Shown: positions 2,916 through 23,034, counted from the first letter of the stretch. The stretch: 32,000 nucleotides of DNA from Erysipelotrichaceae bacterium (GCA_028698185.1 JAQVDW010000018.1:4316-36315); one strand, 5' to 3'. The notes: generated by a model not told the origin, from the sequence alone. Made by a program: numbers and translations.

Positions 2916-4052
2916 TTACAGCCTGGTGACCATCCGGATCGCAAAGATAAGCCGGTTCATGGGGGATGGATTGATTACGATGGCTTTTTTCGGGCAGACC
3001 GACATGCAGTAGTAGCAGCTGATGCAGCGTTTTTGATCGATGGCTATCCTGCCATCCTTCAAAGTTATGGCGTTGACGGGGCAGGATGGAATGCACTCAA
3101 GGCACCCGTTGCACTTGCTTTGTCTTACCTTGAGGTTGACGAAAGTCTTGGTCACAAATATGCTGCTGTTGTTGTAGGGCAGGTCAAGCGGGGTCTTGAT
3201 CAGTTTGGCAAAAAGAAACTGCGGACATTGTCCGATGACCTGGATGTCATCTTCACTCTTGATCATGCCCCTTTTGATGGCCTGGATGAAAACGGGGATC
3301 TCATCCACATTGTAACCGATCATCTTGGCGGCGACGAAGTCGAGGGCGGCGGGATTTCTCGAGGCGAGGACGACTCCGGTAGCTACGGGTTTGCCCAGGG
3401 CGGTCGGTCCTCCGTCAAGGCTGAATATCGCGTCCATTACCGAAAGGGTCGGCTTGATGTTTTGGTGGATGTCGATGAAAACGTCCCCCAGCTCGAATTC
3501 GCTGTTTACCCACTGGTGGATTTTCTGCTTGTAGCCTCCGGGCAGACAGCCGAACATGTTCTTGATGGCTCCCGAAAACCGGGTGGCGCTGTGGGTCTTG
3601 AGCTTGCAGGCATCGATGATCAGATCGACTTCGCTTAAAATCGCGGGCATGTACAATTCCCGCAGTCCGTCCGGCCGGTCAGGACCTATGTCAATCTTCG
3701 CCAGCCGGCATTTTTCGAATTCGACCAGGCGGGCCTGATACTTTCTGGCGACTTTATCGATTTTCGAGGTCACGAATGCCTTTTTGGTCAGACCCCGCTG
3801 GAAAAAGGCAATAGATTCGCCGATATAGATCTCGTTGTTTCTTTCCTGGCAGAGCCGGCACAGGGCATCGATCAGGGCATAATGGGTGATCGTATGCTGG
3901 TTTGGGCTGTTCTGGGACACGAGATTGGGTTTTATCAGAATCTTCTTGTTTTCCGGCAGCTCGAAGCCGATATCTTCGATGGCCTTTTTGACGGCAAGGT
4001 AGACGGCTTCCAGTTCATAAGTGGGGCAACTGACAATTGATACTTGTTCCAT
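2916..4052 (-). CDS. DUF362-domain protein with a C-terminal 2x[4Fe-4S] ferredoxin domain
   Basis: N-terminal and central region typical of DUF362 (KILIKPNL..., KLKTHSATRFSGAIKNMFGC). Two CxxCxxCxxxCP motifs (CNGCLECIPSCP, CISCYYCMSVCP). GGAGGAAA ribosome binding site. Confidence 0.8.
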   Translation of the reverse strand: MEQVSIVSCPTYELEAVYLAVKKAIEDIGFELPENKKILIKPNLVSQNSPNQHTITHYALIDALCRLCQERNNEIYIGESIAFFQRGLTKKAFVTSKIDKVARKYQARLVEFEKCRLAKIDIGPDRPDGLRELYMPAILSEVDLIIDACKLKTHSATRFSGAIKNMFGCLPGGYKQKIHQWVNSEFELGDVFIDIHQNIKPTLSVMDAIFSLDGGPTALGKPVATGVVLASRNPAALDFVAAKMIGYNVDEIPVFIQAIKRGMIKSEDDIQVIGQCPQFLFAKLIKTPLDLPYNNSSIFVTKTFVNLKVRQSKCNGCLECIPSCPVNAITLKDGRIAIDQKRCISCYYCMSVCPKKAIVINPSPMNRLIFAIRMVTRL

Positions 4053-4090
4053 TGGATTTCCTCCATTCCCTTGATGGTTCCTCTACAATC

Positions 4091-4119
4091 AGTGTAGCAC
4101 TTCCAGCCTGTTTTCTCAA
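4091..4119 (-). promoter_or_regulatory. Candidate promoter of the DUF362 gene
   Basis: Minus strand reads TTGAGA (4119-4114), 17 nt, TGcTACACT extended -10 (hexamer 4096-4091). Confidence 0.5.
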
Positions 4120-4633
4120 TTTATTTGATGGCTCATATCGCCCGTCAATAACATGTAAAAAAGCCGGGAATAGTCAAAGGCTGGATGTGACAAGGTGTTC
4201 ACTGCTGCCGGTTTTTAAGCCGACAATTCGCTAGAAGAAGCGTTGGAAGAACTTTGCGATGATATTTCATGAATCGTAGATACAATCGCTCCAGAAAAGG
4301 TCCTGACCGCTGTCCATAAAGAGTATCGTGCAATTCGGGTAATGGAATAATATGTTGAAGGATTTGTAACTGTAATCAGTATCAAATCAATCTGTCAATG
4401 GGGTGAATTTTGGATTTGGAACGATGCGGCCACGCTGCGTCCTTTTTAATCGCTTTGATAAACGGCTTTATTTTCTGGAATTGAGGATAAAAAAACATCA
4501 AGAAACTTTAAGAAAGCCTTGGATAATATTGTTGGAATATCAATATTAGGCAGTATGGTAGTGGCTGGTATAATAATTGCTATCGTACTACCTGCTTATC
4601 ATGCATTTATAAAAAAATAGGTTTTGCTAGTAG

Positions 4634-4657
4634 AAGTCATGTAATTATGACTTTTTT
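4634..4657 (+). terminator. Rho-independent terminator-like hairpin at the left edge of the AT-rich islet
   Basis: AAGTCAT gtaatt ATGACTT followed by TTTTT. Confidence 0.5.
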
Positions 4658-4750
4658 AATTTTATGTCGGATTGAACCAAATTTTTCTAATTGTCGTCTA
4701 CTATATGTGCCTAATTCAAGCGTAAAAATGTAATATATTTAATTTATGTA

Positions 4751-4779
4751 TTGAAAAAATGTAACATTATATATAAAAT
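4751..4779 (+). promoter_or_regulatory. Candidate promoter of the retron ncRNA-RT transcript
   Basis: TTGAAA (4751-4756), 17 nt, TAAAAT (4774-4779). The predicted start is about 4786-4787, which coincides with the left inverted repeat. Confidence 0.55.
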
Positions 4780-4786
4780 AAATGTA

Positions 4787-4915
4787 GCGCATGGCCAGAT
4801 TTTTCGTTTGTGTTTCGCAAATGTTGAAAATAATGTTGGGCAGAATTGCTCCTTATATAACGCTTACGGTTATACTTGTATATACGTATCATTAGCATAT
4901 TGAGTGGCCATGCGC
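4787..4915 (+). ncRNA. Candidate retron msr-msd non-coding RNA bounded by a1/a2 inverted repeats
   Basis: GCGCATGGCCA (4787-4797) is the perfect reverse complement of TGGCCATGCGC (4905-4915). It sits directly between the promoter and the RT ribosome binding site. Internal short hairpins are present, and G4798 follows a1. Confidence 0.6.
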
Positions 4916-4932
4916 CTAATGGGTGGAAATTT

Positions 4933-6597
4933 ATGAACAAACTATATAAAGTAAAGACTAAAAGAGATTTGGCAGATGCTCTTGGGATCCCGTATAGAAA
5001 ACTAACGTATATGCTCTACATATATAAAATTGAAAACTTCTATGAATCGTTTGAAATTGATAAGAAATCTGGCGGAAAAAGAAGGATAAACGCCCCAAGA
5101 GGAGACTTGCTTGACTTACAAAGACAACTGGCAATGATGCTCGCCGATGTGTATGATAATATAAACGAAAACTGTCGAACTTTTTCGAACATTTCTCATG
5201 GATTTGAAAAAAGAAAAAGCATTATCACTAATGCAAAAATGCATAAAAACAAACGTTATGTTCTTAATTTGGATATAAGTGATTATTTTGATAGTTTCAG
5301 TTTTGCAAGGGTTATGGGGTTTTTTATAAAAAATTCCAATTTTGAAATGTCAATTGAAGCGGCAACAGTGCTTGCACAATTAACTTGTTATGAAGGTAAA
5401 TTACCCCAGGGAGCTCCAACCTCGCCCATTATTTCAAATATGATTTGTAGGATATTAGATTTGCGAATAGCAAAGATTTGTAAGAGAAATAAAGTTGTGT
5501 ATTCTAGGTATGCTGATGACTTAACTATCTCTACTAACAATAAATACTTCATTGAAAATTATGAAGATTTTGTATCTAAACTTAGAGATGAAATTGAGAG
5601 ATTTGGATTATCTATAAATGAAAAAAAGACTCGATTGTTAACTAACTACGCGAGGCAAGAAGTCACGGGTCTTGTTGTAAATAGAAAGATAAGCATAAAA
5701 AGAGAGTATTGTAAAGATACTAGAGCTATGCTTCATCAATTATTGAAAACTGGCGATTTTTTAATAGATAAACATCCAGGAACAATAAGGCAGTTAGAAG
5801 GCAGATTTGCGTTTATCAATCAGATTGATTGGTACAATAATAGTTTTGATGGCAATGATCATGGTTTATATAAACTTAATTCTAGAGAGCGTCAATACCA
5901 AAAATTCTTGTTCTATAAATATTTTTACGCTAATGATATGCCTTTAGTTGTTACTGAAGGGAAAACGGATATAATTTATCTTAAGGCGGCCTTGAGAAAA
6001 TACCACAAAAAGTACCCATCATTAATAGAAATGAATAACGGAACGTATAGATACAAGGTTTCTTTTTTGAAAAAGAGCAAACGAATTAGATATTTTTTAG
6101 GTTTTCAGCTTGACGGAGCAGACTCGATGATAAAGATATACAAATACTATACTAAAGGTGGGAATTGTCCGAATTATTTTGAAATTATTAGTAAATTGAG
6201 CAAAAATGGACCATCTAACCCAGTGATATTACTATTTGATAATGAGCCTCAAAAAAATAAGCCATACTGTAAATTTAGACAAGAGGCAAAATTAAAAAAC
6301 AGCCCTCCAGATAATACTAATTTGTCGGATAAACTAGAAGGTAATTTGTATCTTCTAACTGTCCCTATGATGCAAGGAAAATGCGAGAGTGAGATGGAAG
6401 ATTTATTTCATGATTCGGTTCTTGAGGTTAAGATTGGTAGTAAAGAATTTAGTCGAGATCCGCACGCTGATTCTAGTAAATATTTCGGTAAGACTAAATT
6501 CGCCGAATATGTTCATAAAAATTTCGAAAATATTGATTTCTCAAATTTTGTGCCACTACTTGATGAATTGAATGATATAGTTATGAAATTTGAATGA
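4933..6597 (+). CDS. Retron-type reverse transcriptase fused to a C-terminal Toprim-like domain (Ec67/Retron-Eco2-like)
   Basis: Motifs NAKMH (NAxxH), LPQGAPTSP, YSRYADDLTIS and RQEVTGLVVN (VTG). The C-terminal part has VVTEGKTDIIYLKAAL, VILLFDNE and SEMEDLF. ATG 4933 is preceded by GGGTGG. The tracked TTG start at 4876 would overlap the a2 repeat. Confidence 0.85.
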   Translation: MNKLYKVKTKRDLADALGIPYRKLTYMLYIYKIENFYESFEIDKKSGGKRRINAPRGDLLDLQRQLAMMLADVYDNINENCRTFSNISHGFEKRKSIITNAKMHKNKRYVLNLDISDYFDSFSFARVMGFFIKNSNFEMSIEAATVLAQLTCYEGKLPQGAPTSPIISNMICRILDLRIAKICKRNKVVYSRYADDLTISTNNKYFIENYEDFVSKLRDEIERFGLSINEKKTRLLTNYARQEVTGLVVNRKISIKREYCKDTRAMLHQLLKTGDFLIDKHPGTIRQLEGRFAFINQIDWYNNSFDGNDHGLYKLNSRERQYQKFLFYKYFYANDMPLVVTEGKTDIIYLKAALRKYHKKYPSLIEMNNGTYRYKVSFLKKSKRIRYFLGFQLDGADSMIKIYKYYTKGGNCPNYFEIISKLSKNGPSNPVILLFDNEPQKNKPYCKFRQEAKLKNSPPDNTNLSDKLEGNLYLLTVPMMQGKCESEMEDLFHDSVLEVKIGSKEFSRDPHADSSKYFGKTKFAEYVHKNFENIDFSNFVPLLDELNDIVMKFE

Positions 6598-6840
6598 CCG
6601 CATGCCTCAGGTTGAAAATTCCAGTAGTGATATATCGAGATTTGGTAGTTCAAAAATCCAACTAATTTCTACATTTCAGATCATATATCTTCTTTTCGCG
6701 AACCAAAAGTGATGCATACTGTGTTTTATGGGCATTTAAATTATGAAATGTGATTATTAAAATTTCAATACGAATTACTTTTCCAGAAGCAGCACTTAAT
6801 TACTTTTTAACTAGAATCGATTAGCAAGTAATGGGTGGTT

Positions 6841-7107
6841 ATAACAAGTAGACTTATATTGAATATGATAACTTTTGTTTTAGGTGCTAAGAAAGAAGAA
6901 ACTTATCAGGAAAAATGAATGTTAACCTATTTGTTTAGGAAGGACTTGTCCTTGGAAGAACAATGCACTAGACCTATGATTATGTTAAAAGGGGGAATGT
7001 CGATGATTATTAGAGGATTTATCACTGGTTTACAAAGAATTTGTTTTAATGGCATTTCAATTAATCTTGGCCCTATAGGATTTAATTTTGCTAGTAGTTC
7101 TTCCTAA
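6841..7107 (+). pseudogene. Possible fossil of a second retron RT N-terminus (one in-frame TGA, truncated)
   Basis: The frame from 6841 reads ...VLGAKKEETYQEK*MLTYLFRKDLSLEEQCTRPMIMLKGGMSMIIRGFITGLQRICF... It aligns by eye to the intact RT segment KLTYMLY...KKSGGKRRINAPRGDLLDLQRQL. It is preceded by TAATGGGTGG (6829-6838), identical to the intact RT's SD region (4917-4926). Confidence 0.4.
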
Positions 7108-7209
7108 ATGAATAATAATGTTTGTATCTAATTTTGCAATCTAAACATCTTTTCGATATTTTCGTCAGTCAACGTACTCTGTTACTATCAAAATCAATAT
7201 TTTATTAAC

Positions 7210-7364
7210 TTAATACATTCCTGAATCGCCCAGATCGGCAGTTCTATTATGCACTAAATAATCGCATACTGGATGATCACTTGCTGCATCGTTCTGGATC
7301 AGTGCCAGGATCTCCAACGCTGATTTCAACGAAGTCACAAAGAAATATTCATTTTTTTGTCCAT
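7210..7364 (-). pseudogene. Small ORF with a strong ribosome binding site, interrupted at an A7 homopolymer
   Basis: GGAGGTGATAGC-ATG (7364-7362) gives MDKKMNISL* in frame. After the A7 run (7358-7352) the -1 frame stays open to 7210 (..NEYFFVTSLKSALEILALIQNDAASDHPVCDYLVHNRTADLGDSGMY*). Confidence 0.3.
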
Positions 7365-7516
7365 GCTATCACCTCCATTCAAAAGTACATACTTAGTGGG
7401 AGGTGATTTTACTTTTAATTTTATAAATACAAGGTATAAGTAATAAGATATATCTATATACATATTGGTCTAATGTGGTTAAAATGGAGTTAGATGATTA
7501 AAGAAAGGGAATTTAC

Positions 7517-8125
7517 ATGAAAGACACAGATAAAGCGTATTTTGAAATAGTTGATTTTTTACAAAATGCAGATTCGAAGTCATTGCTCTTAAAAGGTATC
7601 TCAGATGACGCGAAAGTCCAGTTGATGCTAAAATCCTTGCACGATGAAAAGCTACTAAGGGGTAGCGTTTATCTTATGCACATGAAAAAAGATGGGATTG
7701 AAAAGTTCTTTAGACCATTTAATATTCCTGGAAGGAAAAAAATCGCCCAATCAAAAACGTACGGTGAAGAAATTAGATTTAGTGATATGCAACTAAGATT
7801 CTATAAGCTAAAATCATATACAGATTTTCTGATTAATGAAGGACAAATGGATTCTTTTTCGATAGTTTGGCCGATTCAAAGCGCAGTAGGGAATAGAGAA
7901 GATATTGCTAATCTAAAAAAATATATTGGCAGTGCTGATGTGAAGAAAATAATTCTAATCACTTACAATGTGGTACTTCAAGATACAGAGGAGATTGAAT
8001 CGATTGTTGATAAGGTTATAAAACTAGATAAGGAAAACGATGATCCAAAGGTATATAATAGAAGAATTGAAACCGCAAAATACAATGATATTCGAAAAAC
8101 TGCATTATCGGGCGAAAGATGGTGA
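7517..8125 (+). CDS. Hypothetical protein (202 aa), no family recognised
   Basis: ORF track. AAAGGGA ribosome binding site 7 nt upstream of ATG 7517. AT-rich codon usage like the retron RT. The stop codon lies at the junction with the IS21 fragment. Confidence 0.55.
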   Translation: MKDTDKAYFEIVDFLQNADSKSLLLKGISDDAKVQLMLKSLHDEKLLRGSVYLMHMKKDGIEKFFRPFNIPGRKKIAQSKTYGEEIRFSDMQLRFYKLKSYTDFLINEGQMDSFSIVWPIQSAVGNREDIANLKKYIGSADVKKIILITYNVVLQDTEEIESIVDKVIKLDKENDDPKVYNRRIETAKYNDIRKTALSGERW

Positions 8126-8756
8126 CATGTTTCCGCGTTTATACCACGCAAATGATCAAATACGCTCATAGTCACGCCGTCCCAATCAACCATGACTTTG
8201 TCGCCTGGTTTGTGATGAATGTGCATCGTCAAATTGTTTTTCTTTACATAATCCTGGTACAATTCAAAGTAACGGGTTTGATGATAGAAAGGCAAAGATG
8301 CAGCGCGACATTGTTCCACATACTCACGCCACAATCCCCTAATGTATATTCCTGGTTTGAGTAACTCTTTATGGATGTAATCACAATCAGGCAAAATTTG
8401 GACTGGTAGATACTTTTCATCTGGAAAAAGCAACGAATTAATCTCGACATCATTCATACTTTGAAACTGAACCCATGTCAATCCGGTATTATCAGCAGCC
8501 TTGAAAATCCTGCTGACTGTATTACGGGATAAATGAAGCGATAAAGCAATGGCTCGTTGGCTCTCACCATAAAAACGTTTCTCAAGAATTTTCTTGATTT
8601 CTTGCATGAAAAAACACCTCCTTAGTAGATGCAAGGTAGATTGTTATCTACACTTCAATTCTACTCCTAAAGAGGTGGCTCTGTGAGTGAACATTTTATA
8701 TTTACAAAGTTGCTCTGTATGGTGAACACGGTGGCTCTCAACTAGCGGAATACTCA
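8126..8756 (-). mobile_element. Truncated IS21-family insertion sequence (left end plus the 5' third of istA only)
   Basis: Terminal region with repeated motifs GGTGGCTCT (8674-8682, 8730-8738) and GTGAACA. On the minus strand the outer end begins TGAGTATTCC... (8756 downward). No istB and no second end in the window. Confidence 0.65.
8143..8607 (-). pseudogene. istA: IS21-family transposase IstA, N-terminal fragment (about 155 aa of an expected ~400-500)
   Basis: MQEIKKILEKRFYGESQRAIALSLHLSRNTVSRI (HTH) ... HHKPGDKVMVDWDGVTMSVFD, typical of IstA. Similarity is lost near 8125-8145. AGGAGGTG ribosome binding site. Confidence 0.7.
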
Positions 8757-8840
8757 ATTATAATGGGGGCCTAAATGGGGGCCTTGGAAAAACATATCTA
8801 TGGAATAGTTGCTAAATAGTTAAAATATTTGTAGATAAAA

Positions 8841-8884
8841 CAAAAAAAGGTATTAAACACCTACAAAATAGTTGTTTAATACCT
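8841..8884 (-). terminator. Rho-independent terminator of rpsD
   Basis: Perfect 12-bp inverted repeat AGGTATTAAACA (8848-8859) / TGTTTAATACCT (8873-8884), followed on the minus strand by a U-run (plus-strand A-run 8842-8848). Confidence 0.8.
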
Positions 8885-8899
8885 AAATTTTTATGAGGT

Positions 8900-13293: not shown

Positions 13294-13361
13294 GTTCTAT
13301 GACTGTAAATAGGTGAATAATTGTGATAGAATGAATGAAATATCGTGCCCGGGGGAATCGT

Positions 13362-14831
13362 ATGCAACTAGAACCAATCAAACAAACATCATATCTGACC
13401 GCTTTGAACGCTCATCTTTATCGCAGGATCATGCGGATTGTCTATCTTGAGTCGACCCACTACAACTACCATCTCGATCTTGAAAAGATAATGGAAAAAC
13501 TGGAAAACGACGAGTTCGAGGGCGCAATCGATGAGCCGGCCGTAAAAAACGCTCTTGACGCCCTGGTGGACTGGGGCAATCTTACCGCCATCCAGGATGC
13601 CAAGCAGGTCAACACGATTGCCGAATTCAAGGCTCGCAAGTTCCGTTATTCGATCAGTGATATCGCCCTGGAGGTCGAACGGATGGTGATGAAAATCGAG
13701 AACCTGACCGTGAAAAGCAACAGCGCCTCGCTAGGCTACCTCAAGCGGCTGTACCAGGAATTCAAAAAGATTCTCACTCTGAGTGACGCAAGTGAAATGC
13801 AGCTTCTGGAGTGGTGGGAGTATGTCGGGAATGATTTTGCGACCTTGAACCTGGTTTATAGCGACTACCTCCGTGATTTTTCCGGTGCCAAGTCGCAAAA
13901 GCTGATGCAGTCACTTGAATTTTTGCAACACAAGGAGTACTTCGTCAGGATGCTCAAGGATTTCGTGACCCAGCTGCAGATTTATGCCATTGAGTTCGAG
14001 AAGATTCTGATAAGTCTTGACCCTAATTACGTCACCAGTCTCCTTGAGCGGATCGTAACCGCCCAGAAGAAGAATCCTTCTTCGCTTGGTGCTCTTGAAT
14101 ACACCGATGAAAAGTACCTGAGGGATGGGGTCTTTGGCCGTTACAGCGAGCTGCAAAGGTGGTTTGTCAAACTGCCGGGAAGCCCGAGCGAAGTTGAACA
14201 GATCATGGATCGCACCAACGTCATTATCCGCCAGATCATCCAGAATGCGGGGCTGATCATCGACTTCCATGAGGGCATAATATCCAAGAAGGATGATTAC
14301 CGCCATTACCTGAAACTTTTTGGCCGGATATCCGATCTTGGTGAGGCCCATAAGCTGGCGGCCCATCTTTTCGGGGTCCATGATATCCGTCATTACCAGA
14401 CCAATGCGCCAAGACTGAGTGAAAGCAGTGCGATTTCGACCTTCGCCGAGGCACCTCAGGTTTTCGAAGTCAAACCGATGACCCGCAAATACCGGATCAA
14501 GCAGGAAAAAATCACCCTGGTGGACCGGTCACTCGAAAAGCAGCTGCAGATCCAGGCGCATCAGGCGATGATTGCCAGCCAGATCAAGATCGCCAACACC
14601 TACATCAAAGCCAAACGGATCGACTTCAAGGATATCGTCGATGAGATATCGCCCGCGACCCGGTTGTTGCTGCTTTCGTGGGTTGCCAGTGCCAACGGCA
14701 CAATCGACAAGGTCGGTACAAGCGAGTTTGGCCGACGCTTCAAACTAATGAAAATGGATGAGACCATCACATTGCGCTGCAGTGACGGCGACTTGCAGAT
14801 GCCCCGGTTCATCCTGGAATTCGAGGATTAA
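13362..14831 (+). CDS. jetA: Wadjet JetA-like subunit (DUF2397/TIGR02677-type, kleisin-like)
   Basis: First gene of a 4-gene operon with TIGR02677/78/80/79 order and sizes (489 aa). The N-terminus SYLTALNAHLYRRIMRIVY fits the family start as I recall it. ATG 13362 follows GGGGGA. Confidence 0.7.
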   Translation: MQLEPIKQTSYLTALNAHLYRRIMRIVYLESTHYNYHLDLEKIMEKLENDEFEGAIDEPAVKNALDALVDWGNLTAIQDAKQVNTIAEFKARKFRYSISDIALEVERMVMKIENLTVKSNSASLGYLKRLYQEFKKILTLSDASEMQLLEWWEYVGNDFATLNLVYSDYLRDFSGAKSQKLMQSLEFLQHKEYFVRMLKDFVTQLQIYAIEFEKILISLDPNYVTSLLERIVTAQKKNPSSLGALEYTDEKYLRDGVFGRYSELQRWFVKLPGSPSEVEQIMDRTNVIIRQIIQNAGLIIDFHEGIISKKDDYRHYLKLFGRISDLGEAHKLAAHLFGVHDIRHYQTNAPRLSESSAISTFAEAPQVFEVKPMTRKYRIKQEKITLVDRSLEKQLQIQAHQAMIASQIKIANTYIKAKRIDFKDIVDEISPATRLLLLSWVASANGTIDKVGTSEFGRRFKLMKMDETITLRCSDGDLQMPRFILEFED

Positions 14832-14832
14832 G

Positions 14833-15942
14833 ATGATACCTAAAGAACTGCTTGAAAACTTCTGGGTCCTTAAAAGCGACGACCCCAAGAAGTTCTATCA
14901 GTTGAAAAGAGAACTGAAACAGTCGCAAAGCTTCATCAACAACCAGATCGGATGGAAAGTCATCGCCAATGACAATCTTCTCAAGATTGAAAAGACACCT
15001 TATCGGGCTTCGGGCTATATGGGAATCACGGATTTCAACGATGTTGACGACTACCTTTTCCTGGTGGCCACCCTGATCTTCCTCGAGGACAAGGGGGTGC
15101 ACGAGCAGTTTTTGCTTTCGCAGTATATTGAAGGGATTGAAGTGATTTTGGGTGACCTGATCGAGCTGGACTGGACGAGCTATTCGCGGCGCCGGACTTT
15201 GATCAGGGTTATGGAATACTGTCTCAACCTGGCCCTGCTTAAGGTCACCGACGGTTCGCTGGAAGGCTTCAAAAGCGGCGGCGAGGGCGAGGTGCTCTAT
15301 GAGAACACGGGACTTTCGAAGTATTACCCGGTCAGCTTCAATTTCGATGTCACCAAGATTGAAGGGGTCGATGATCTGGTTGTGGTGTTGAATGATTCAA
15401 CCGACACCGTGCGCAATAGCGTCTATCAACAGCTGATCACCAGCCCGGGGGTGACCTGGAGCTCGAGTGAGGATGTCTTTGGCAAATATCTCAAGAACCA
15501 GCGGTTCAACATCCAGAAAAACATCGACCGCTTTCTTTCTGGTGAGTTGATGGTATTCAAGAACTCGGCCTACTTGATGGTCTCCAGTGATGATAAATAT
15601 GGGACCCTCCATCCCAGCGGCAAATCGATAAGTTCGCTGGTGCTGTTTGTCCAGAAGCGGATCGTCGAGATGTGCAACAATGGCGAATTGAAGCTCTTGG
15701 TTGAGGATGTGATCGAGATGGGTGCCGGCGATTTTGGCAAGCTTGTTGTGGGCGTATACAATCAGGTTCTGCCGGGATTGTCGAGCGAGTACCGCAATAT
15801 GGACATAAACAATGTGATCAAGGCGGTAGTCGCCTATATGGAGGGCTTCCATCTGATCGAACTAGATGGAGCAAAGATAATAATACAAGGGGCAGTGGCC
15901 CGCCATGAGGGAAGTTACCCTTATGATTTTGTGGAGGAATAG
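14833..15942 (+). CDS. jetB: Wadjet JetB-like subunit (DUF2398/TIGR02678-type)
   Basis: 369 aa. The start lies 1 nt after the jetA stop. Position and size fit the family. No motif can be verified by eye. Confidence 0.65.
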   Translation: MIPKELLENFWVLKSDDPKKFYQLKRELKQSQSFINNQIGWKVIANDNLLKIEKTPYRASGYMGITDFNDVDDYLFLVATLIFLEDKGVHEQFLLSQYIEGIEVILGDLIELDWTSYSRRRTLIRVMEYCLNLALLKVTDGSLEGFKSGGEGEVLYENTGLSKYYPVSFNFDVTKIEGVDDLVVVLNDSTDTVRNSVYQQLITSPGVTWSSSEDVFGKYLKNQRFNIQKNIDRFLSGELMVFKNSAYLMVSSDDKYGTLHPSGKSISSLVLFVQKRIVEMCNNGELKLLVEDVIEMGAGDFGKLVVGVYNQVLPGLSSEYRNMDINNVIKAVVAYMEGFHLIELDGAKIIIQGAVARHEGSYPYDFVEE

Positions 15943-18900
15943 ATGAAAGAAAGATGGCAGATGCATCGGATGGGACTGGTGAATTTCTGGTATTTCGACG
16001 ACCAGGAGTTCGAGTTTGCCAATGGCAAGCTTTTGATCCGGGGCCAGAACGGTTCGGGAAAATCGATATCGACCCAATCCTTCATTCCGTTCATATTGGA
16101 TGGAAACAAGGCGCCTTACAGGCTGGATCCCTTTGGGTCCAAGGACCGGCGCATGGAATATTATTTCCTGCTTGACGGCAAGAATGATGAATCGGCCGGC
16201 TATATCTGGCTTGAATTCAAGAAAACCGGTTCAGAGCAGTACCGCACCCTGGTAATCGGACAGCGGGCCCGCAAGAACAGCGACATGCAGTTCTGGAGCG
16301 GGATAATTCTTGACAACCGGCGGATCAACCGAGATTTTCAGCTAAAAAAACGGCTTGGCGACTCTTGGCAGATTCTCACCAAACAGGAGTTCAAAAACGC
16401 GCTTGGGGATAGCAACTTCTACTCCGAGCGGGCGGTGGAGTACAAGGCGGCGGTCAACAAGCATGTTTTCGGGTTCGACCAGCTTGACCAGTACGACCAG
16501 TTCGTGGACCTGCTTATCAAGGTGCGGGCTCCAAAGCTTTCCAAGGAATTCAAACCGACCAAGATCTACGAGATCTACAATGAAAGTCTCCAGGTTTTAA
16601 GCGATAGTGATATCCTGCCGATGGTCGAATCGATGGAAGAAATCGACCGGACCCAGGCCAAGCTCGATGAATTCCAGGCGACCAAAAAGGCGCTTGACAA
16701 TGTCGGTCGCGTCTACAATCTCTACAATCGCTATTACCTGGGGAAAAAGGCGCAAAACTACACCCGTTATCGCGACGAGTTCGATGACCTTTCCAGCCGG
16801 CTCAAAGACGGTCAGGACCGGTTTGAAGCCAATCAGGAAGCGCTAATAGATATCGCTAAAAGAACCGATGAGCTAAACGGGGCCAATGCCCTGTTGCAAA
16901 CCGAAAGGGCTGCGCTCCCGCTTGATGACATCGAAGCCAAGATTGAAAGCTACAAACAGGCAAAAGGGGAAAAGCAGGCTCAGGTCCAGGAACTAAAGGC
17001 CCATCAAGGCAAGCTGGATGCCGCCTTGGCGGAAAAGGATGTCAAAATCACCCAGCGGCGCCAGCTTGAACAGGATGGCAGCGACTGCGAGTATCGGGTT
17101 TTTAAAGGGATCAAAGAACTTGATGCGATCAACGAAATCGCAAAGCTGCCAGGCCACGAAAAGATCCGCCGAATGGAAAGTCAACGTGATCTTCTGGGAC
17201 ACTGTGATGAGCTTGAAGGGGAATTGAACAAAGTTTCCAAGCGGGTCGACCAGGTTCTTGTCTGTCTTGACCGGCGCCATCAAGAACAACTCCGGCGCGA
17301 CGAGCTTGCGCAAAACCTCGGCCTGGTCAATGAACAGATTGCCAACTGCAACAGTCTTCTTGATGGCAAGACCCGGGAGATTGAAAACGTAAGGGACGAA
17401 CTGATCAACGGATTCTATCGTTTCGCGCAGGGAAGTCCCGCCCTCGATATCACAAGCAGGCTTAATGATCTGGCCAATATCATCAGGGAATACCAGGGCT
17501 ATGGCGATTTTAGAATGATTGACCGGATTTTGATCGAGCTCAAAAGCGACCAGGCGCTGACTTTGAACAAGTCGATAATGGAGACACGCTTCGCCTTGGA
17601 CAACTACCGGAAGGACCGGGATCTGCTTAACCGGGAACTCATCGCCCTGATCCAAACACAGGATCTGACATTTCCGGTCTCCGAGCTGGTTGGCCAAGGG
17701 CGCAGGATCCTTGCGGATAACGGAATTGATTTTATCAGTGTCTATCAGGCCTTGGAATTCGACGAGTCGCTTACGGAAAAACAGAAGAACATAATGGAAG
17801 CCCAGCTGGTGGCAACCAATCTCATCGATGCCATCATCGTCAATTACGAAAACTATGAAAAGGCCCGGGAGCTTTTAAGGGGCAGCGACCAGGTCCTGGT
17901 GGCTCTTGAAAGTCAGGAGGGGACGGGGACGTTCTTTGTCAAGGGGGACCATCCCCGGTTTGAGCGGGAAATCGATGATTTCATCGCGATGTTCGCTTCC
18001 AAAGGCCGCTTCGAACCTGACGGCCATTACCGCCATGGGCTGATGGAAGGTTTCGTTTCCGACAAAAAAGAAAGTCTCTATGTGGGTGAAAAGTCGCGCA
18101 AGGCCAACCGGCTAAGGCAGATCGCTTCGATCGAAGCCAGTATGGCAAAGCTCGAGGAACTTGTGGAATCGACGACCCAGGAAATAAAAAGGCTAGAACA
18201 GATTGGAGCGCAGCTTGAGGAAGACTATGCCAGCCTCCAGGTTTTTGCCGACCTCGACCGGCTGCTCGAAGAGCTTGACGCGCTTGAAGTCCAGCTGGTC
18301 CAGGCGACCCAAAAACAACAGGAGCTTTCAAATCAGGTGGAGCAAGTCAAGGCCCGGCTGGTAAAAATCAAGAACGAATTGCTTGGAGCGGCCAGCGATC
18401 TGCCATACCATCTGGAAAGTGCCATCTATCAGGATGTCAGGGAAAGTCTAAAAGACTATCAGACCACCTTGAACCAGATCCACCGCGAATTGCTGCTCTG
18501 GGGAACCAAGAACACCCAGGTGCAAACGATCGGCGAGGTGATTGACAAGATTGGGGAACAGGTTGATGAATACTACGATTTGACCCGCCAGCTGGAAAGC
18601 CGGATTGCCAAGAACACCACCATCATCGCGACCATCGAGAATTACCTGAATCAAGAGTCAACCAAAGAGCTCCATGGGCGGGTCAGAAAAATCGACGAAG
18701 CGCTGGAAGCCAATGGGATTGAAATTGAAAAACTTGACAGCCAGCGGCAACATTACCGGGAAGCGAATCTCCTGCTTGAACGGGATATCGCCCTGATGGC
18801 CAGCCAGTTGGAAAAAGCGAAGGCTTATCTTGATCTTTCAAGAGAACTTTTTGTCCAGGAACTCGATCTAGGATATGTTCAAGGAATCATGGGCAATATC

Positions 18901-19953
18901 GATGAACAGGCCAAAAAAGCGGGCAGTCTGCTCCAGCCAAATGAAGCGCAAAAGGGCGAGAATGAGCTGTTGCAATCGTTGAACGACGCCCAGCGCAACA
19001 ACTTCTCGGCTTTGACCAATTATGGCATCGCCACGGTTGAGCTGTTCAAAGCCAATGAATCCAACCTGATTTCCCTGCGTTATGCGATCATGCTCAAGTA
19101 CCAGAACAAGACGGTCGATTTCTTCGAATTTTACGATAAGATCACCGAAACGATCGAGAACACCCAGCTGCTCATAGTGGAAAAGGACAAGGAACTATTC
19201 GAGAAGTTCTTCTCCGACGCCCTGGCCAACAAGCTGATCCGCAAGATCAACGACGCGAAAAGCTGGGTCAAGGACATGAGCGAGCTTATGGAGAATCTCA
19301 AGACGACATCGGCCATCTCGTTTTCACTGGCATGGAAGCCCAAAGCGGCTCTTTCCAGCGATGATCTCGCGACGCTAGAACTCGTCAGGCTGCTTGAAAG
19401 CGACCGGGAGATCCTGAGCTACGAGAATCTTAACGCCCTCTCGCAACATTTTTCCAAACGGATCAAGATGGCCAAACAGGAATATCTTGAAAACGACATC
19501 CAGGAGTTCAACTACGGTGACCTGGTCCGCCAGGCCCTGGATTATCGGGAATGGTTCGAATTCTGCCTTTACTACAGACGGTCCGGAGCTGTCAAGAAGG
19601 AACTGACCAATTCGGCCTTCAATGTCCTTTCCGGGGGCGAGAAGGCGATGGCGATGTATGTGCCGCTGTTCACCGCGGTCAATGCCCAGTACAAGAAATC
19701 CGCGAAACCGGACTTCCCGCGCATCATCGCCCTTGATGAAGCCTTTGCCGGAGTCGACAGCGAGAATATCTCGTCGATGTTCGATCTGGTGGAGAAACTG
19801 GATTTCGATTTCATCATGAACTCGCAGGTGCTCTGGGGCACTGATGGCGCAGTCAAGGAGCTGGCGATATCCGAACTGTACCGGCCGCTCAATTCCCAGG
19901 TTGTATCGACCATAAATTACCATTGGAACGGAAAGGTGAAGACGCTGTTATGA
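15943..19953 (+). CDS. jetC: Wadjet JetC, SMC-like ABC ATPase (TIGR02680-type)
   Basis: 1336 aa. RMGLVNFWYFDDQEFEFANGKLLIRGQNGSGKS (Walker A at nt 16042-16065). About 900 aa of heptad-rich coiled coil. C-terminal signature LSGGEKAMAM and Walker B RIIALDEAFAGVD. The ATG directly follows the jetB TAG, with a GGAGGA ribosome binding site. Confidence 0.9.
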   Translation: MKERWQMHRMGLVNFWYFDDQEFEFANGKLLIRGQNGSGKSISTQSFIPFILDGNKAPYRLDPFGSKDRRMEYYFLLDGKNDESAGYIWLEFKKTGSEQYRTLVIGQRARKNSDMQFWSGIILDNRRINRDFQLKKRLGDSWQILTKQEFKNALGDSNFYSERAVEYKAAVNKHVFGFDQLDQYDQFVDLLIKVRAPKLSKEFKPTKIYEIYNESLQVLSDSDILPMVESMEEIDRTQAKLDEFQATKKALDNVGRVYNLYNRYYLGKKAQNYTRYRDEFDDLSSRLKDGQDRFEANQEALIDIAKRTDELNGANALLQTERAALPLDDIEAKIESYKQAKGEKQAQVQELKAHQGKLDAALAEKDVKITQRRQLEQDGSDCEYRVFKGIKELDAINEIAKLPGHEKIRRMESQRDLLGHCDELEGELNKVSKRVDQVLVCLDRRHQEQLRRDELAQNLGLVNEQIANCNSLLDGKTREIENVRDELINGFYRFAQGSPALDITSRLNDLANIIREYQGYGDFRMIDRILIELKSDQALTLNKSIMETRFALDNYRKDRDLLNRELIALIQTQDLTFPVSELVGQGRRILADNGIDFISVYQALEFDESLTEKQKNIMEAQLVATNLIDAIIVNYENYEKARELLRGSDQVLVALESQEGTGTFFVKGDHPRFEREIDDFIAMFASKGRFEPDGHYRHGLMEGFVSDKKESLYVGEKSRKANRLRQIASIEASMAKLEELVESTTQEIKRLEQIGAQLEEDYASLQVFADLDRLLEELDALEVQLVQATQKQQELSNQVEQVKARLVKIKNELLGAASDLPYHLESAIYQDVRESLKDYQTTLNQIHRELLLWGTKNTQVQTIGEVIDKIGEQVDEYYDLTRQLESRIAKNTTIIATIENYLNQESTKELHGRVRKIDEALEANGIEIEKLDSQRQHYREANLLLERDIALMASQLEKAKAYLDLSRELFVQELDLGYVQGIMGNIDEQAKKAGSLLQPNEAQKGENELLQSLNDAQRNNFSALTNYGIATVELFKANESNLISLRYAIMLKYQNKTVDFFEFYDKITETIENTQLLIVEKDKELFEKFFSDALANKLIRKINDAKSWVKDMSELMENLKTTSAISFSLAWKPKAALSSDDLATLELVRLLESDREILSYENLNALSQHFSKRIKMAKQEYLENDIQEFNYGDLVRQALDYREWFEFCLYYRRSGAVKKELTNSAFNVLSGGEKAMAMYVPLFTAVNAQYKKSAKPDFPRIIALDEAFAGVDSENISSMFDLVEKLDFDFIMNSQVLWGTDGAVKELAISELYRPLNSQVVSTINYHWNGKVKTLL

Positions 19954-21230
19954 TCGAAGAGTGCGTAGCCTACTTCAAGGCGAAGCCGGAATTCGACCGG
20001 GTCTTCAAACTCATGAAAAAGCAGTGGGAGAAATACGGGCGGGCAGCCGGCTACATAATTCTCAAAGACCCGACTGCCAAAGAAAAGGAGGTCCTGGGCA
20101 AGTTTTTGCACCAGGATTATGGCTATCCCGCCGATCTGGCCAAGATCAGATTCAAGATGGTCTCCTTCCAGGAAGCACTGGAAATAACCAGGTTCAAAAA
20201 CCTCGATATCAAGGATATCCTTGACGCCTACTTCCGGATGGAAATATCGACGACCGGACACAAACGGATGGTCGCTCAAAAAAAGCAGGCTGATTTATTC
20301 GAGGCGCTGTCAAAACGGGTAAGCCACCCGTTGGTGGCAGATTGGTTCGATTGGCTGCGCCAATCCAGAACCAGTGGCTATATGTTGTTCAAGTCATGGG
20401 TCAAGGATGATGAAGATTCCGCCTGCCAGGCGATACAAGCGATCGACAGTGCGGTTGGCTGTCTTGATCGAAGTGCGTTTCCCTTGGCGGTTCTAGGGGC
20501 CCAGGTGACGGGCAATCCCCACTATTTCGACCGCAACACCAAGCCGGGGCGGCTGCTTATCAGCTGTTTGGGACATATCCATGGCGTCACAACCCCGAGT
20601 CACGCCCAGGGGATTTTGGAGCTGTATGTCCTGGCCAAAATAACCCCGGATGACATCTCGTCGAGTGTGGTCATCAAGAACATCGACCTTTTTCAAGGGG
20701 ACAAGATCCATCAAGGTGTTGCCGGATTCAATGAATTGAACGAGCCTTGTGTGGTGACTTTGGGCAACCTGGCGAACGTCAGTCATGCTTCAAGCAAGCC
20801 CTGTGTGTTTGTGTTTGAAAACCAGATGGTCTTTTCATATCTGGCCAGCGAGCGACTCGATAACTGCTCCCTGGTGTGCACTTCGGGCCAGCTCAAGGTT
20901 GCGGCACTGAAGCTTTTCGAAATGCTCGACAGGAAAGTCAGGATCTTTTACAGTGGCGATTTCGATCCCGAGGGCCTGCAAATAGCCGACAAGCTATTGG
21001 GCCGTTTTCCCAATGTGACGCCGTGGGGGTTTAGTGAGGAGCTTTACTTCAAGGCGCTTTCAAGCGAGCCAATCAGCGATGTCCGCCTGAGCAAACTCGA
21101 TTCCCTGGCCGACTCGCGCCTTAAACAATTGGGCAAGTCAATCAAGGACCATAAGTTGGCCGGTTACCAGGAAAACATCCTCGATTTCTACCGTGAGGAC
21201 ATCGTCAAAAAAATGATGGAAAACAAGTGA
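19950..21230 (+). CDS. jetD: Wadjet JetD-like Toprim nuclease subunit (DUF3323+DUF2399/TIGR02679-type)
   Basis: ATGA overlap with the jetC stop. The C-terminal Toprim motifs are VFVFENQMVF (Glu) and IFYSGDFDPEGLQIADKL (DxD). 426 aa. Confidence 0.8.
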   Translation: MIEECVAYFKAKPEFDRVFKLMKKQWEKYGRAAGYIILKDPTAKEKEVLGKFLHQDYGYPADLAKIRFKMVSFQEALEITRFKNLDIKDILDAYFRMEISTTGHKRMVAQKKQADLFEALSKRVSHPLVADWFDWLRQSRTSGYMLFKSWVKDDEDSACQAIQAIDSAVGCLDRSAFPLAVLGAQVTGNPHYFDRNTKPGRLLISCLGHIHGVTTPSHAQGILELYVLAKITPDDISSSVVIKNIDLFQGDKIHQGVAGFNELNEPCVVTLGNLANVSHASSKPCVFVFENQMVFSYLASERLDNCSLVCTSGQLKVAALKLFEMLDRKVRIFYSGDFDPEGLQIADKLLGRFPNVTPWGFSEELYFKALSSEPISDVRLSKLDSLADSRLKQLGKSIKDHKLAGYQENILDFYREDIVKKMMENK

Positions 21231-22687: not shown

Positions 22688-22764
22688 TGGCGGTCTGGAC
22701 GGGACTCGAACCCGCGACCTCCGCCGTGACAGGGCGGCATTCTAACCAACTGAACTACCAGACC
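22688..22764 (-). tRNA. tRNA-Asp (GUC)
   Basis: The reverse complement folds as a cloverleaf: GGTCTGG acceptor, anticodon loop CTGTCAC, T-loop TTCGAGT, encoded CCA. Near-identical to Bacillus tRNA-Asp. Confidence 0.95.
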
Positions 22765-22772
22765 GTAAAAAA

Positions 22773-22863
22773 TGGCGGAGACAGAGAGATTTGAACTCTC
22801 GCGCCAGTTACCCGACCTACGCCCTTAGCAGGGGCGCCTCTTCAGCCTCTTGAGTATGTCTCC
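22773..22863 (-). tRNA. tRNA-Ser (GCU)
   Basis: GGAGACA/TGTCTCC acceptor stem, anticodon loop CTGCTAA, long variable arm, T-loop TTCAAAT, encoded CCA. Confidence 0.93.
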
Positions 22864-22882
22864 AGGTTTTTACTGCTTTTAC

Positions 22883-22911
22883 ATGATAGCATTTATTTAC
22901 ATGTGTTGCAA
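22883..22911 (-). promoter_or_regulatory. Candidate internal promoter ahead of tRNA-Ser
   Basis: Minus strand reads TTGCAA (22911-22906), 17 nt, TATCAT (22888-22883), about 20 nt upstream of the tRNA-Ser 5' end. Confidence 0.45.
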
Positions 22912-22958
22912 TACTTTTTTTCACTTTTTTCAAACACTGTCCAATGTTTAGAAAAAAA

Positions 22959-23034
22959 TGGTCTCCCCGCACGGGCTCGAACCGTGGACCCTCTGATTAA
23001 GAGTCAGATGCTCTACCAACTGAGCTACGGAGAG
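22959..23034 (-). tRNA. tRNA-Lys (CUU)
   Basis: Cloverleaf with D-arm GCTCAGTTGGTAGAGC, anticodon loop CTCTTAA, T-arm CACGGTTCGAGCCCGTG and encoded CCA. Acceptor stem CTCTCCG/CGGGGAG (C1:G72). Confidence 0.9.

Follow-up and report, generated by a model that had tools for sequence, protein, structure and literature searches.

Retrons are anti-phage elements of bacteria that produce small single-stranded DNA (msDNA). Retron-Eco2 (Ec67) of E. coli is a type I-C1 retron in which the reverse transcriptase (RT) and a Toprim domain are fused in a single gene, with the noncoding RNA (ncRNA) immediately upstream on the same strand. In this system, G15 of the ncRNA has been shown experimentally to be the 2'-5' branch point (PMC12916289, PMC12405507); the first nucleotide of the msDNA (dT1) is templated by A118, synthesis halts at G52:dC67, and U51 is flipped out onto residue F46 of the protein (PMC12916289; PMC12405507). 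F46 stacks on U51, R184 contacts G15, and the msr stem-loop bridges neighboring RT domains (PMC12405507). Instead of a hairpin, the msDNA of Eco2 adopts an intermolecular three-way junction (PMC12916289). For Eco2, and for Eco2 only, an msDNA-bound trimer has been described that holds the Toprim domain inactive, and msDNA loss driven by a phage nuclease leads to cleavage of tRNA and other RNA (PMC12916289, PMC12405507).

Mestre et al. (2020) gave a single "IC" consensus ncRNA structure for RT clade 8, and distinguished variant I-C2 by a DxE signature in Toprim motif V, as opposed to DxD (PMC7736814). "Two opposing G residues" are a general feature of retron ncRNAs (PMC7736814), and NAxxH and VTG are named hallmarks of retron proteins (PMC7736814, PMC12405507). 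Three papers in the searchable literature mention I-C2 (Toprim DxE) retrons, and by title and abstract none of them appears to be an experimental study of the variant.

Overall organization of the locus

We analyzed a 32,000-nucleotide stretch of DNA from an Erysipelotrichaceae bacterium (hereafter, the window). Judged from its sequence and its relatives, region 4751–6597 is very likely a complete Ec67/Eco2-family retron of type I-C and variant I-C2, and every testable sequence-level feature that defines a retron, type I-C, and variant I-C2 was found in it. The features of the locus are as follows:

4517–8898 (no strand): low-GC insertion of 4,382 bp bearing the retron, recognized by GC profile and by empty sites in close strains
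4751–4779 (+): putative sigma-70/sigma-A promoter, with the −35 box TTGAAA at 4751–4756, a 17-nt spacer, and the −10 box TAAAAT at 4774–4779
4786/4787 (+): predicted transcription start, placed from the promoter position
4786–4916 (+): retron ncRNA (msr-msd) of the type I-C family, matched by a leave-one-out covariance model
4787–4797 (+): 5' arm of the closing stem, GCGCATGGCCA (a2 by convention), forming a perfect 11-bp inverted repeat with 4905–4915
4798 (+): predicted branching (priming) guanosine G4798, whose 2'-OH would prime the msDNA, assigned from an invariant A-G-A triplet and alignment with Eco2 G15
4805–4823 (+): conserved msr stem-loop of 8 bp, including two G-U pairs, with the loop UUU at 4813–4815, from RNAfold and family covariation
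4832–4835 (+): predicted reverse-transcription stop motif AAUG, in which U4834 corresponds to Eco2 U51, and G4835, the last templating base, to G52
4835–4903 (−): predicted msDNA of 69 nt, 5'-TCAATATGCTAATGATACGTATATACAAGTATAACCGTAAGCGTTATATAAGGAGCAATTCTGCCCAAC-3', the reverse complement of the msd template, with A4903 templating dT1
4904 (+): unpaired G4904 opposite the branching G, within the invariant GAGU motif 4902–4905, invariant in 41 sequences
4905–4915 (+): 3' arm of the closing stem, TGGCCATGCGC (a1 by convention), the exact reverse complement of the 5' arm
4921–4926 (+): Shine-Dalgarno-like GGGTGG, read in the sequence, 6 nt before the ATG
4933–6597 (+): retron RT-Toprim fusion protein, 554 aa, type I-C2, from PADLOC, PDB, and Pfam matches
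5230–5244 (+): motif NAKMH of the RT-Toprim ORF, aa 100–104
5509–5520 (+): motif YADD of the RT-Toprim ORF, aa 193–196
5662–5670 (+): motif VTG of the RT-Toprim ORF, aa 244–246
5956–5970 (+): Toprim motif IV of the RT-Toprim ORF, EGKTD (EGxxD), aa 342–346
6238–6246 (+): Toprim motif V of the RT-Toprim ORF, DNE (DxE), D436-N437-E438

Comparison between this locus and Retron-Eco2 revealed that (i) in both, RT and Toprim are fused in one gene, which is directly preceded by the ncRNA on its own strand; (ii) both ncRNAs belong to the same covariance family; (iii) in both, the branching G, predicted in our case, stands in an AGA context and is followed by one msr stem-loop; (iv) in both, the stop G lies 37 nt from the branch G and the template begins at a GAG motif; and (v) the two proteins share the RT motifs and the EGxxD motif of Toprim. 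By contrast, protein identity is only ~39–40%, Toprim motif V reads DxE rather than the DxD of Eco2, the msd sequences are unrelated, the predicted msDNA is 69 nt compared with 67 nt, and the stem is separated from the ATG by 17 nt compared with 37 nt. The hosts also differ (an Erysipelotrichaceae bacterium of the Bacillota and E. coli, respectively), as do the surroundings, which are a small chromosomal islet in the window and a P2-like prophage in Eco2, where the retron lies between the replication endonuclease and portal genes.

No qualitative difference was found from the type I-C2 retrons of Mestre et al. (2020; PMC7736814), which have a C-terminal Toprim domain with EGxxD and DxE and the "IC" ncRNA. 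Types XI (RT-protease) and XII (RT-TIR) have related RT domains of the same clade 8 as the RT of the window, and PADLOC matched the window protein to RT-TIR_XII (E 2e-96) and RT-Protease_XI (E 2e-91) over the RT part only; these matches end at residues ~274–361, and the C-terminal effector is a Toprim domain here rather than a TIR or protease domain. Retron-Eco1 (Ec86, type II-A) shares the closing stem, the branching G, and the logic of msDNA as sensor or antitoxin; by contrast, its RT matches only residues 15–271 (E 4.5e-36), its NDT effector is separate, its ncRNA is built differently, and its assembly is filamentous.

The RT-Toprim fusion protein

The ORF at 4933–6597 matched the PADLOC RT-Toprim_I-C model nearly end to end (residues 3–552, E 8e-229), the PDB structures of retron Ec67 (9lm3 and 9i2f; residues 7–550, E 1.3e-104), and Pfam RVT_1. 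More than 5,700 database proteins were homologous to it at E <= 1e-30, and most of the best-scoring homologs with a named source bear the name [quoted passage not shown] Even the closest protein among 5.8 billion shares just 55% identity, which places the window protein on a fairly deep branch. Because the homologs align from residue 1, ATG 4933 is the true start.

The motifs NAxxH, YADD, VTG, EGxxD, and DxE are all intact in the ORF, and D436-N437-E438 is invariant across 25 aligned relatives. From the Toprim motifs EGxxD and DxE, the protein is assigned to variant I-C2. The two Eco2 residues at the ncRNA contacts described above also have counterparts, since F40 of the window protein aligns with Eco2 F46, and R178 with Eco2 R184.

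The inverted repeat and its fold

All elements listed in the initial annotation (TTGAAA, TAAAAT, the two arms, G4798, GGGTGG, and ATG 4933) are present in the sequence exactly where they had been placed. A repeat search returned the same perfect inverted repeat (11 nt, 100% complementary, 107 nt between the arms), and the 3' arm does end 17 nt before the RT ATG. The initial annotation had called the 5' arm a1 and the 3' arm a2; the arms themselves are real, but the names are swapped, because by convention a2 is the 5' arm beside the branching G and a1 is the 3' arm. The order "a2-msr-msd" used in PMC12916289 likewise makes the 5' arm a2. Folding of 4787–4915 with RNAfold, a check that had been proposed along with the annotation, gave a structure of −41.1 kcal/mol (z = −3.7) closed by the 11-bp stem; none of 200 shuffles folded as well. 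The first internal hairpin extends to 8 bp, from C4805-G4823 through G4812-C4816.

Two perfect 11-bp inverted repeats with an offset of 60–260 nt occur in the window, compared with ~2.07 per 32 kb in block shuffles, and 24 promoter-like sites occur in 4050–7600, compared with 18.8 +/- 5.0 in shuffles. Neither the repeat alone nor the promoter alone beats chance in this AT-rich region, so that the argument has to be built on position and on comparison among loci: what lifts the feature above chance is the location of the 3' arm 17 nt before the start codon of a retron RT, together with its conservation. In Rfam searches (permissive around the locus, and at the gathering threshold over the whole window), no retron family was matched; only chance snoRNA-like matches and three tRNAs were returned.

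A conserved ncRNA family upstream of RT-Toprim genes

We fetched 163 loci encoding relatives of the protein from genome, metagenome, and viral contigs; a single-protein scan of genome contigs yielded only 3 Campylobacter loci, and the rest came from alignment-based scans of metagenome and viral contigs. In the 300 nt upstream of each RT start, the longest perfect inverted repeat was sought whose 3' arm ends <=70 nt from the ATG. An equivalent repeat, the absence of which from homologous RT loci would have spoken against the initial annotation, was present in nearly all of the ~85 non-identical upstream regions, with arms of 8–16 bp, a span of 117–155 nt, and an end 13–37 nt before the ATG. The arm sequences vary widely among loci (for example, GCGTGTGGCTA, GAGCACATGGCAA, GGTGTGCAGGCA, CTATAGGCA, GGACTCGCGGACA, and TGTCCTTTGGAAA), yet their flanks are conserved: the 5' arm is followed by AGAUUUU (GAU(U)UU, then the hairpin), and the 3' arm is preceded by GAGU. 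In a MAFFT alignment of 41 of these ncRNAs, the A-G-A closing the 5' arm and the G-A-G-U before the 3' arm are invariant, and the positions of G4798 and G4904 are invariant in all 41 family sequences. At the place equivalent to GGGTGG, the homologs have GGAG/AGGAG-like Shine-Dalgarno sequences.

A first covariance model built from the 41-RNA alignment, run on the homologous loci only, collected 72 matches. Every RT-Toprim locus with enough upstream DNA gave a match to this model except one (L052), whose upstream region is unrelated, and no ncRNA match was found beside any of the non-Toprim retron RT loci (L125–L160). A leave-one-out model (R2), to which the window contributed nothing, was then rebuilt from the 72 matches. 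Its only significant match in the 32-kb window was 4786–4916 on the plus strand (98.7 bits, E 4.8e-22), a score as high as that of typical family members, and the next best match in the 32 kb reached 15 bits. The window ncRNA thereby shows the consensus build of the family, which comprises the closing stem, AGAUUUU, a single msr hairpin, an AAUGG stop region, a variable msd, and GAGU. R2 also found the experimentally characterized Eco2/Ec67 ncRNA of E. coli S10 (72.3 bits), whose sequence was confirmed in 14 E. coli genomes, with 100% identity. The retron msr-msd layout that had been proposed from the repeat is supported by both the type I-C RT-Toprim ORF downstream and the covariance match.

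Covariation was counted over the 61 distinct sequences of the 72-sequence alignment. In the closing stem, 96.9% of cells were paired, with compensatory changes in 12/12 pairs; in the msr hairpin, 95.4% of cells were paired, with compensatory changes in 5/7 pairs. Percentage paired and covariation score were above all 500 shuffles, and every slid register was far lower. The closing-stem pairing of the A2 seed RNAs is inflated because these were picked for a perfect repeat; in A3, the collection from the model search, closing-stem pairing is still 96.9%. Three hairpins had been read by eye in the initial annotation, and all three exist, although only the first (4805–4823) is conserved and covarying. 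The second and third both lie inside the msd template: the second, a small hairpin at the 5' end of the msd (GGGCA/TGCUC), has 58.6% of cells paired and compensatory changes in 4/5 pairs and was dropped as a conserved third helix, and the third (4856–4874) falls within that template, which is hypervariable. The length of ~129 nt had been considered to be at the small end for retron ncRNAs. The family median is 131 nt, and the ncRNA is not small for its family, because both its length and its predicted msDNA are at the family median.

One family member (L041, 85–233) has a 5' arm (AACGTGTGGTTA) and a 3' arm (TTGCCACGCGCTCA) from two different family variants that no longer pair; its ncRNA still scores 90 bits by the model. 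This locus may be a recombinant or a chimeric assembly.

Predicted msDNA

The ends of the msDNA were mapped by a model-guided alignment of the window ncRNA with that of Eco2. In this alignment, Eco2 G15 corresponds to G4798, which the initial annotation had already singled out as a candidate branching guanosine; A49-A50-U51-G52 corresponds to 4832–4835; and G117-A118-G119 corresponds to 4902–4904. The stem-loop at 4805–4823 is the counterpart of the Eco2 msr stem-loop. With its ends carried over from Eco2 A118 and G52, the msDNA is predicted to be the reverse complement of 4835–4903, 69 nt in length (TCAATATGC...GCCCAAC). The same length rule applied to Eco2 gives 67 nt, in agreement with its known length. 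The branch G and the stop G lie 36–38 nt apart in all 61 family members (37 nt in the window and in Eco2), and the predicted msDNA lengths in the family are mostly 57–88 nt, with a median of 69.

The predicted msDNA folds on itself with −5 kcal/mol (z = −0.66, DNA parameters), which is not significantly stable, and an msDNA hairpin was dropped as a supporting feature. The predicted msDNAs of most family members are likewise weakly folded (median z −0.48). This weak self-folding agrees with the three-way junction reported for Eco2. The third hairpin corresponds to msDNA nt 30–48, near the Eco2 segment of nt 29–50, a positional analogy only.

Putative promoter

The TTGAAA-17-TAAAAT element has 10/12 consensus matches in a promoter scan. 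Homologous loci (47 unique loci, window excluded) were scanned for sigma-70-like sites with >=9/12 matches at offsets of −60 to +100 from the stem. The −10 box ends 5–8 nt upstream of the stem in 16/47 loci, with a mode of 7 nt, as in the window; a second cluster, at 25–26 nt (8/47 loci), is formed by a subclade with an extra small hairpin between promoter and stem; and all other offsets account for <=1 locus each. The sites of the homologs thus pile up at the distance at which the initial annotation had set the promoter before the 5' arm, and this clustering supports the putative window promoter and a predicted start at ~4786/4787. The numbering of Eco2 likewise starts one base ahead of the stem.

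The extra 5' hairpin lies ~25 nt upstream of the stem (for example, TTTGCAGATTTTTCTGCAAA; subclade members L028, L040, L050, L067, L069, L070, and L076). Because it sits between the −10 box and the 5' arm, the transcripts of this subclade would bear a 5' extension before the closing stem.

Genomic context

The retron stretch has a GC content of ~31%, compared with 45–52% in its flanks, which carry housekeeping genes (carbonic anhydrase, a ZIP transporter, a DUF362 Fe-S protein, rpsD, pyrF, and a phosphoribosyltransferase). The 90%-identity cluster of the PyrF protein includes a sequence assigned by name to an Erysipelotrichaceae bacterium MAG. In two contigs of closely related strains (L169 and L170), whose flanks are 97.8% and 99.0% identical to those of the window, rpsD lies directly beside the DUF362 gene. 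Comparison with these empty sites places the breakpoints at 4516/4517 and 8898/8899, where the 4,382-bp insertion stands in place of 28 bp. A strain-variable, low-GC insertion is as expected for a mobile defense gene. A search of the islet ends for target-site duplications and terminal repeats gave nothing beyond an 8-bp match attributable to chance, and no integrase was found in 4517–8898. The identical RT-Toprim protein is encoded in four further metagenome assemblies, with the same neighbors wherever the contig reaches.

The ORFs downstream of the retron within the islet (62, 202, and 81 aa) have no PADLOC match and no informative Pfam or PHROG match. A role as retron accessory genes is improbable: the ORFs did not co-occur with other RT-Toprim loci and, being absent beside those loci, are probably unrelated cargo. 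The 202-aa and 81-aa ORFs (7517–8125 and 8119–8364, plus strand), which have no Pfam or PADLOC match and of which the former only weakly matches a PHROG family of unknown function, overlap a minus-strand ORF (7978–8634, 218 aa) and are preferred to it by gene callers. With an HTH at its N terminus and a weak match to a transposase (phrog_1157, E 2.4e-10), the minus-strand ORF resembles the truncated remnant of an IS21-like element. As another observation on gene calls, the Eco2 RT CDS predicted by PGAP also starts inside the ncRNA (L168, 2550, compared with the real ATG at 2670).

At 13335–21230 on the plus strand, ~6.7 kb downstream of the retron, the window carries a complete Wadjet operon of type II (anti-plasmid, SMC-like). 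This operon is also present in the strains without the islet, where DUF2397 and DUF2398 genes were seen (L169 and L170). Its genes are as follows:

13335–14831 (+): JetA2, PADLOC E 1e-130
14758–15942 (+): JetB2, PADLOC E 8e-104
15943–19953 (+): JetC2, PADLOC E 0
19923–21230 (+): JetD2, PADLOC E 4e-122

In addition, a cluster of three tRNAs lies at 22691–23034 on the minus strand (Rfam RF00005; 70.3, 51.8, and 67.5 bits).

Alternative explanations

Several other readings of the locus were weighed. A retron that has decayed or fallen silent, with its features inherited and its msDNA and phage defense lost in this host, is improbable. The small islet does adjoin the apparently truncated IS21-like transposase ORF (7978–8634, minus strand), but the ORF of 554 aa is intact and retains all catalytic motifs, the ncRNA scores like typical family members, and four further metagenome assemblies encode the identical protein. 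We consider it very improbable that the structure is a generic 5'-UTR element, such as an attenuator, a terminator, or a translational regulator of the RT gene, rather than an msr-msd template. Five nucleotides separate the end of the stem from the Shine-Dalgarno sequence and, since the ncRNA of a retron shares its transcript with the RT, it may have a regulatory side effect; however, no U tract follows the stem and no terminator was called at the site, the 107 nt between the arms contain the conserved retron motifs, and the region matches a model that also recognizes the proven msr-msd of Eco2.

A coding function, in which the region would encode a 34-aa peptide from ATG 4791 to the stop at 4895 on the plus strand, is extremely unlikely. 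Such an ORF is present in the window, and gene calls in metagenome assemblies place an ORF over the ncRNA, but an open frame of >=30 codons from the 5' arm exists in only 22/62 homologous ncRNAs, the ncRNA lengths are evenly spread over the modulo-3 classes (23, 22, and 17), and the conservation takes the form of RNA-pair covariation and is not codon-like. Because the ORF is not conserved among the homologs, the 34-aa gene call is likely a mis-annotation. Finally, about two 11-bp repeats of this kind are expected per 32 kb, so that the repeat by itself could have arisen by chance in AT-rich DNA; the family-wide conservation of its position and the covariation refute this reading, and its probability is practically nil.

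Proposed mechanism and significance

The sequence and comparative evidence supports the following steps for the production of the branched msDNA. From the putative sigma-A-type promoter, one transcript would start at ~4786/4787, comprising the ~130-nt ncRNA followed by the RT-Toprim gene. The ends of the ncRNA would pair (4787–4797 with 4905–4915), setting G4798 opposite G4904. The RT domain would use the 2'-OH of G4798 as the primer and copy the msd from A4903 to G4835, with a predicted stop 37 nt downstream of the branch point. The product would be a branched RNA-DNA molecule with an msDNA of ~69 nt. The transcription start, the production of msDNA and its exact ends, and the defense mechanism are all proposed here by homology.

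The later steps are drawn from a ~40%-identical relative of a different variant. By analogy with Eco2, the msDNA may keep the RT-Toprim protein in an inactive oligomer, and phage-induced loss of the msDNA may free the Toprim nuclease, which would cut tRNAs and other RNAs and thereby shut down translation. Because Eco2 belongs to I-C1 (DxD) and is ~39–40% identical, whereas the protein described here has DxE and a Bacillota host, carrying over the Eco2 trigger (phage DenB) and substrate (tRNA acceptor stems) is an extrapolation. As a deep-branching I-C2 member from the Bacillota, the retron could have a trigger or substrate other than those of Eco2, and its AT-rich 69-nt msDNA may assemble unlike the three-way junction; we regard this as rather unlikely, and there is no positive sign of a difference from Eco2 in trigger, substrate, or msDNA assembly in the present evidence.

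Since Mestre et al. gave a consensus ncRNA for the clade and PADLOC recognizes the protein, the locus adds one routine member to the well-studied Ec67/Eco2 (RT-Toprim, type I-C) family, an ordinary, already known kind of element, and the understanding of retrons is unchanged by it. What is gained is a set of exact, homology-anchored ncRNA coordinates where gene callers mis-annotate a 34-aa ORF, and a predicted 69-nt msDNA for an I-C2 retron of a gut-type Bacillota lineage, which may be of use in retron mining for ssDNA production and genome editing and in the annotation of defense systems in metagenomes. For the type I-C family, the comparison makes small additions to the ncRNA picture, namely, the fixed spacing of 36–38 nt between the branch and stop positions, the conserved distance from the −10 box to the stem, and the subclade with an extra 5' hairpin.
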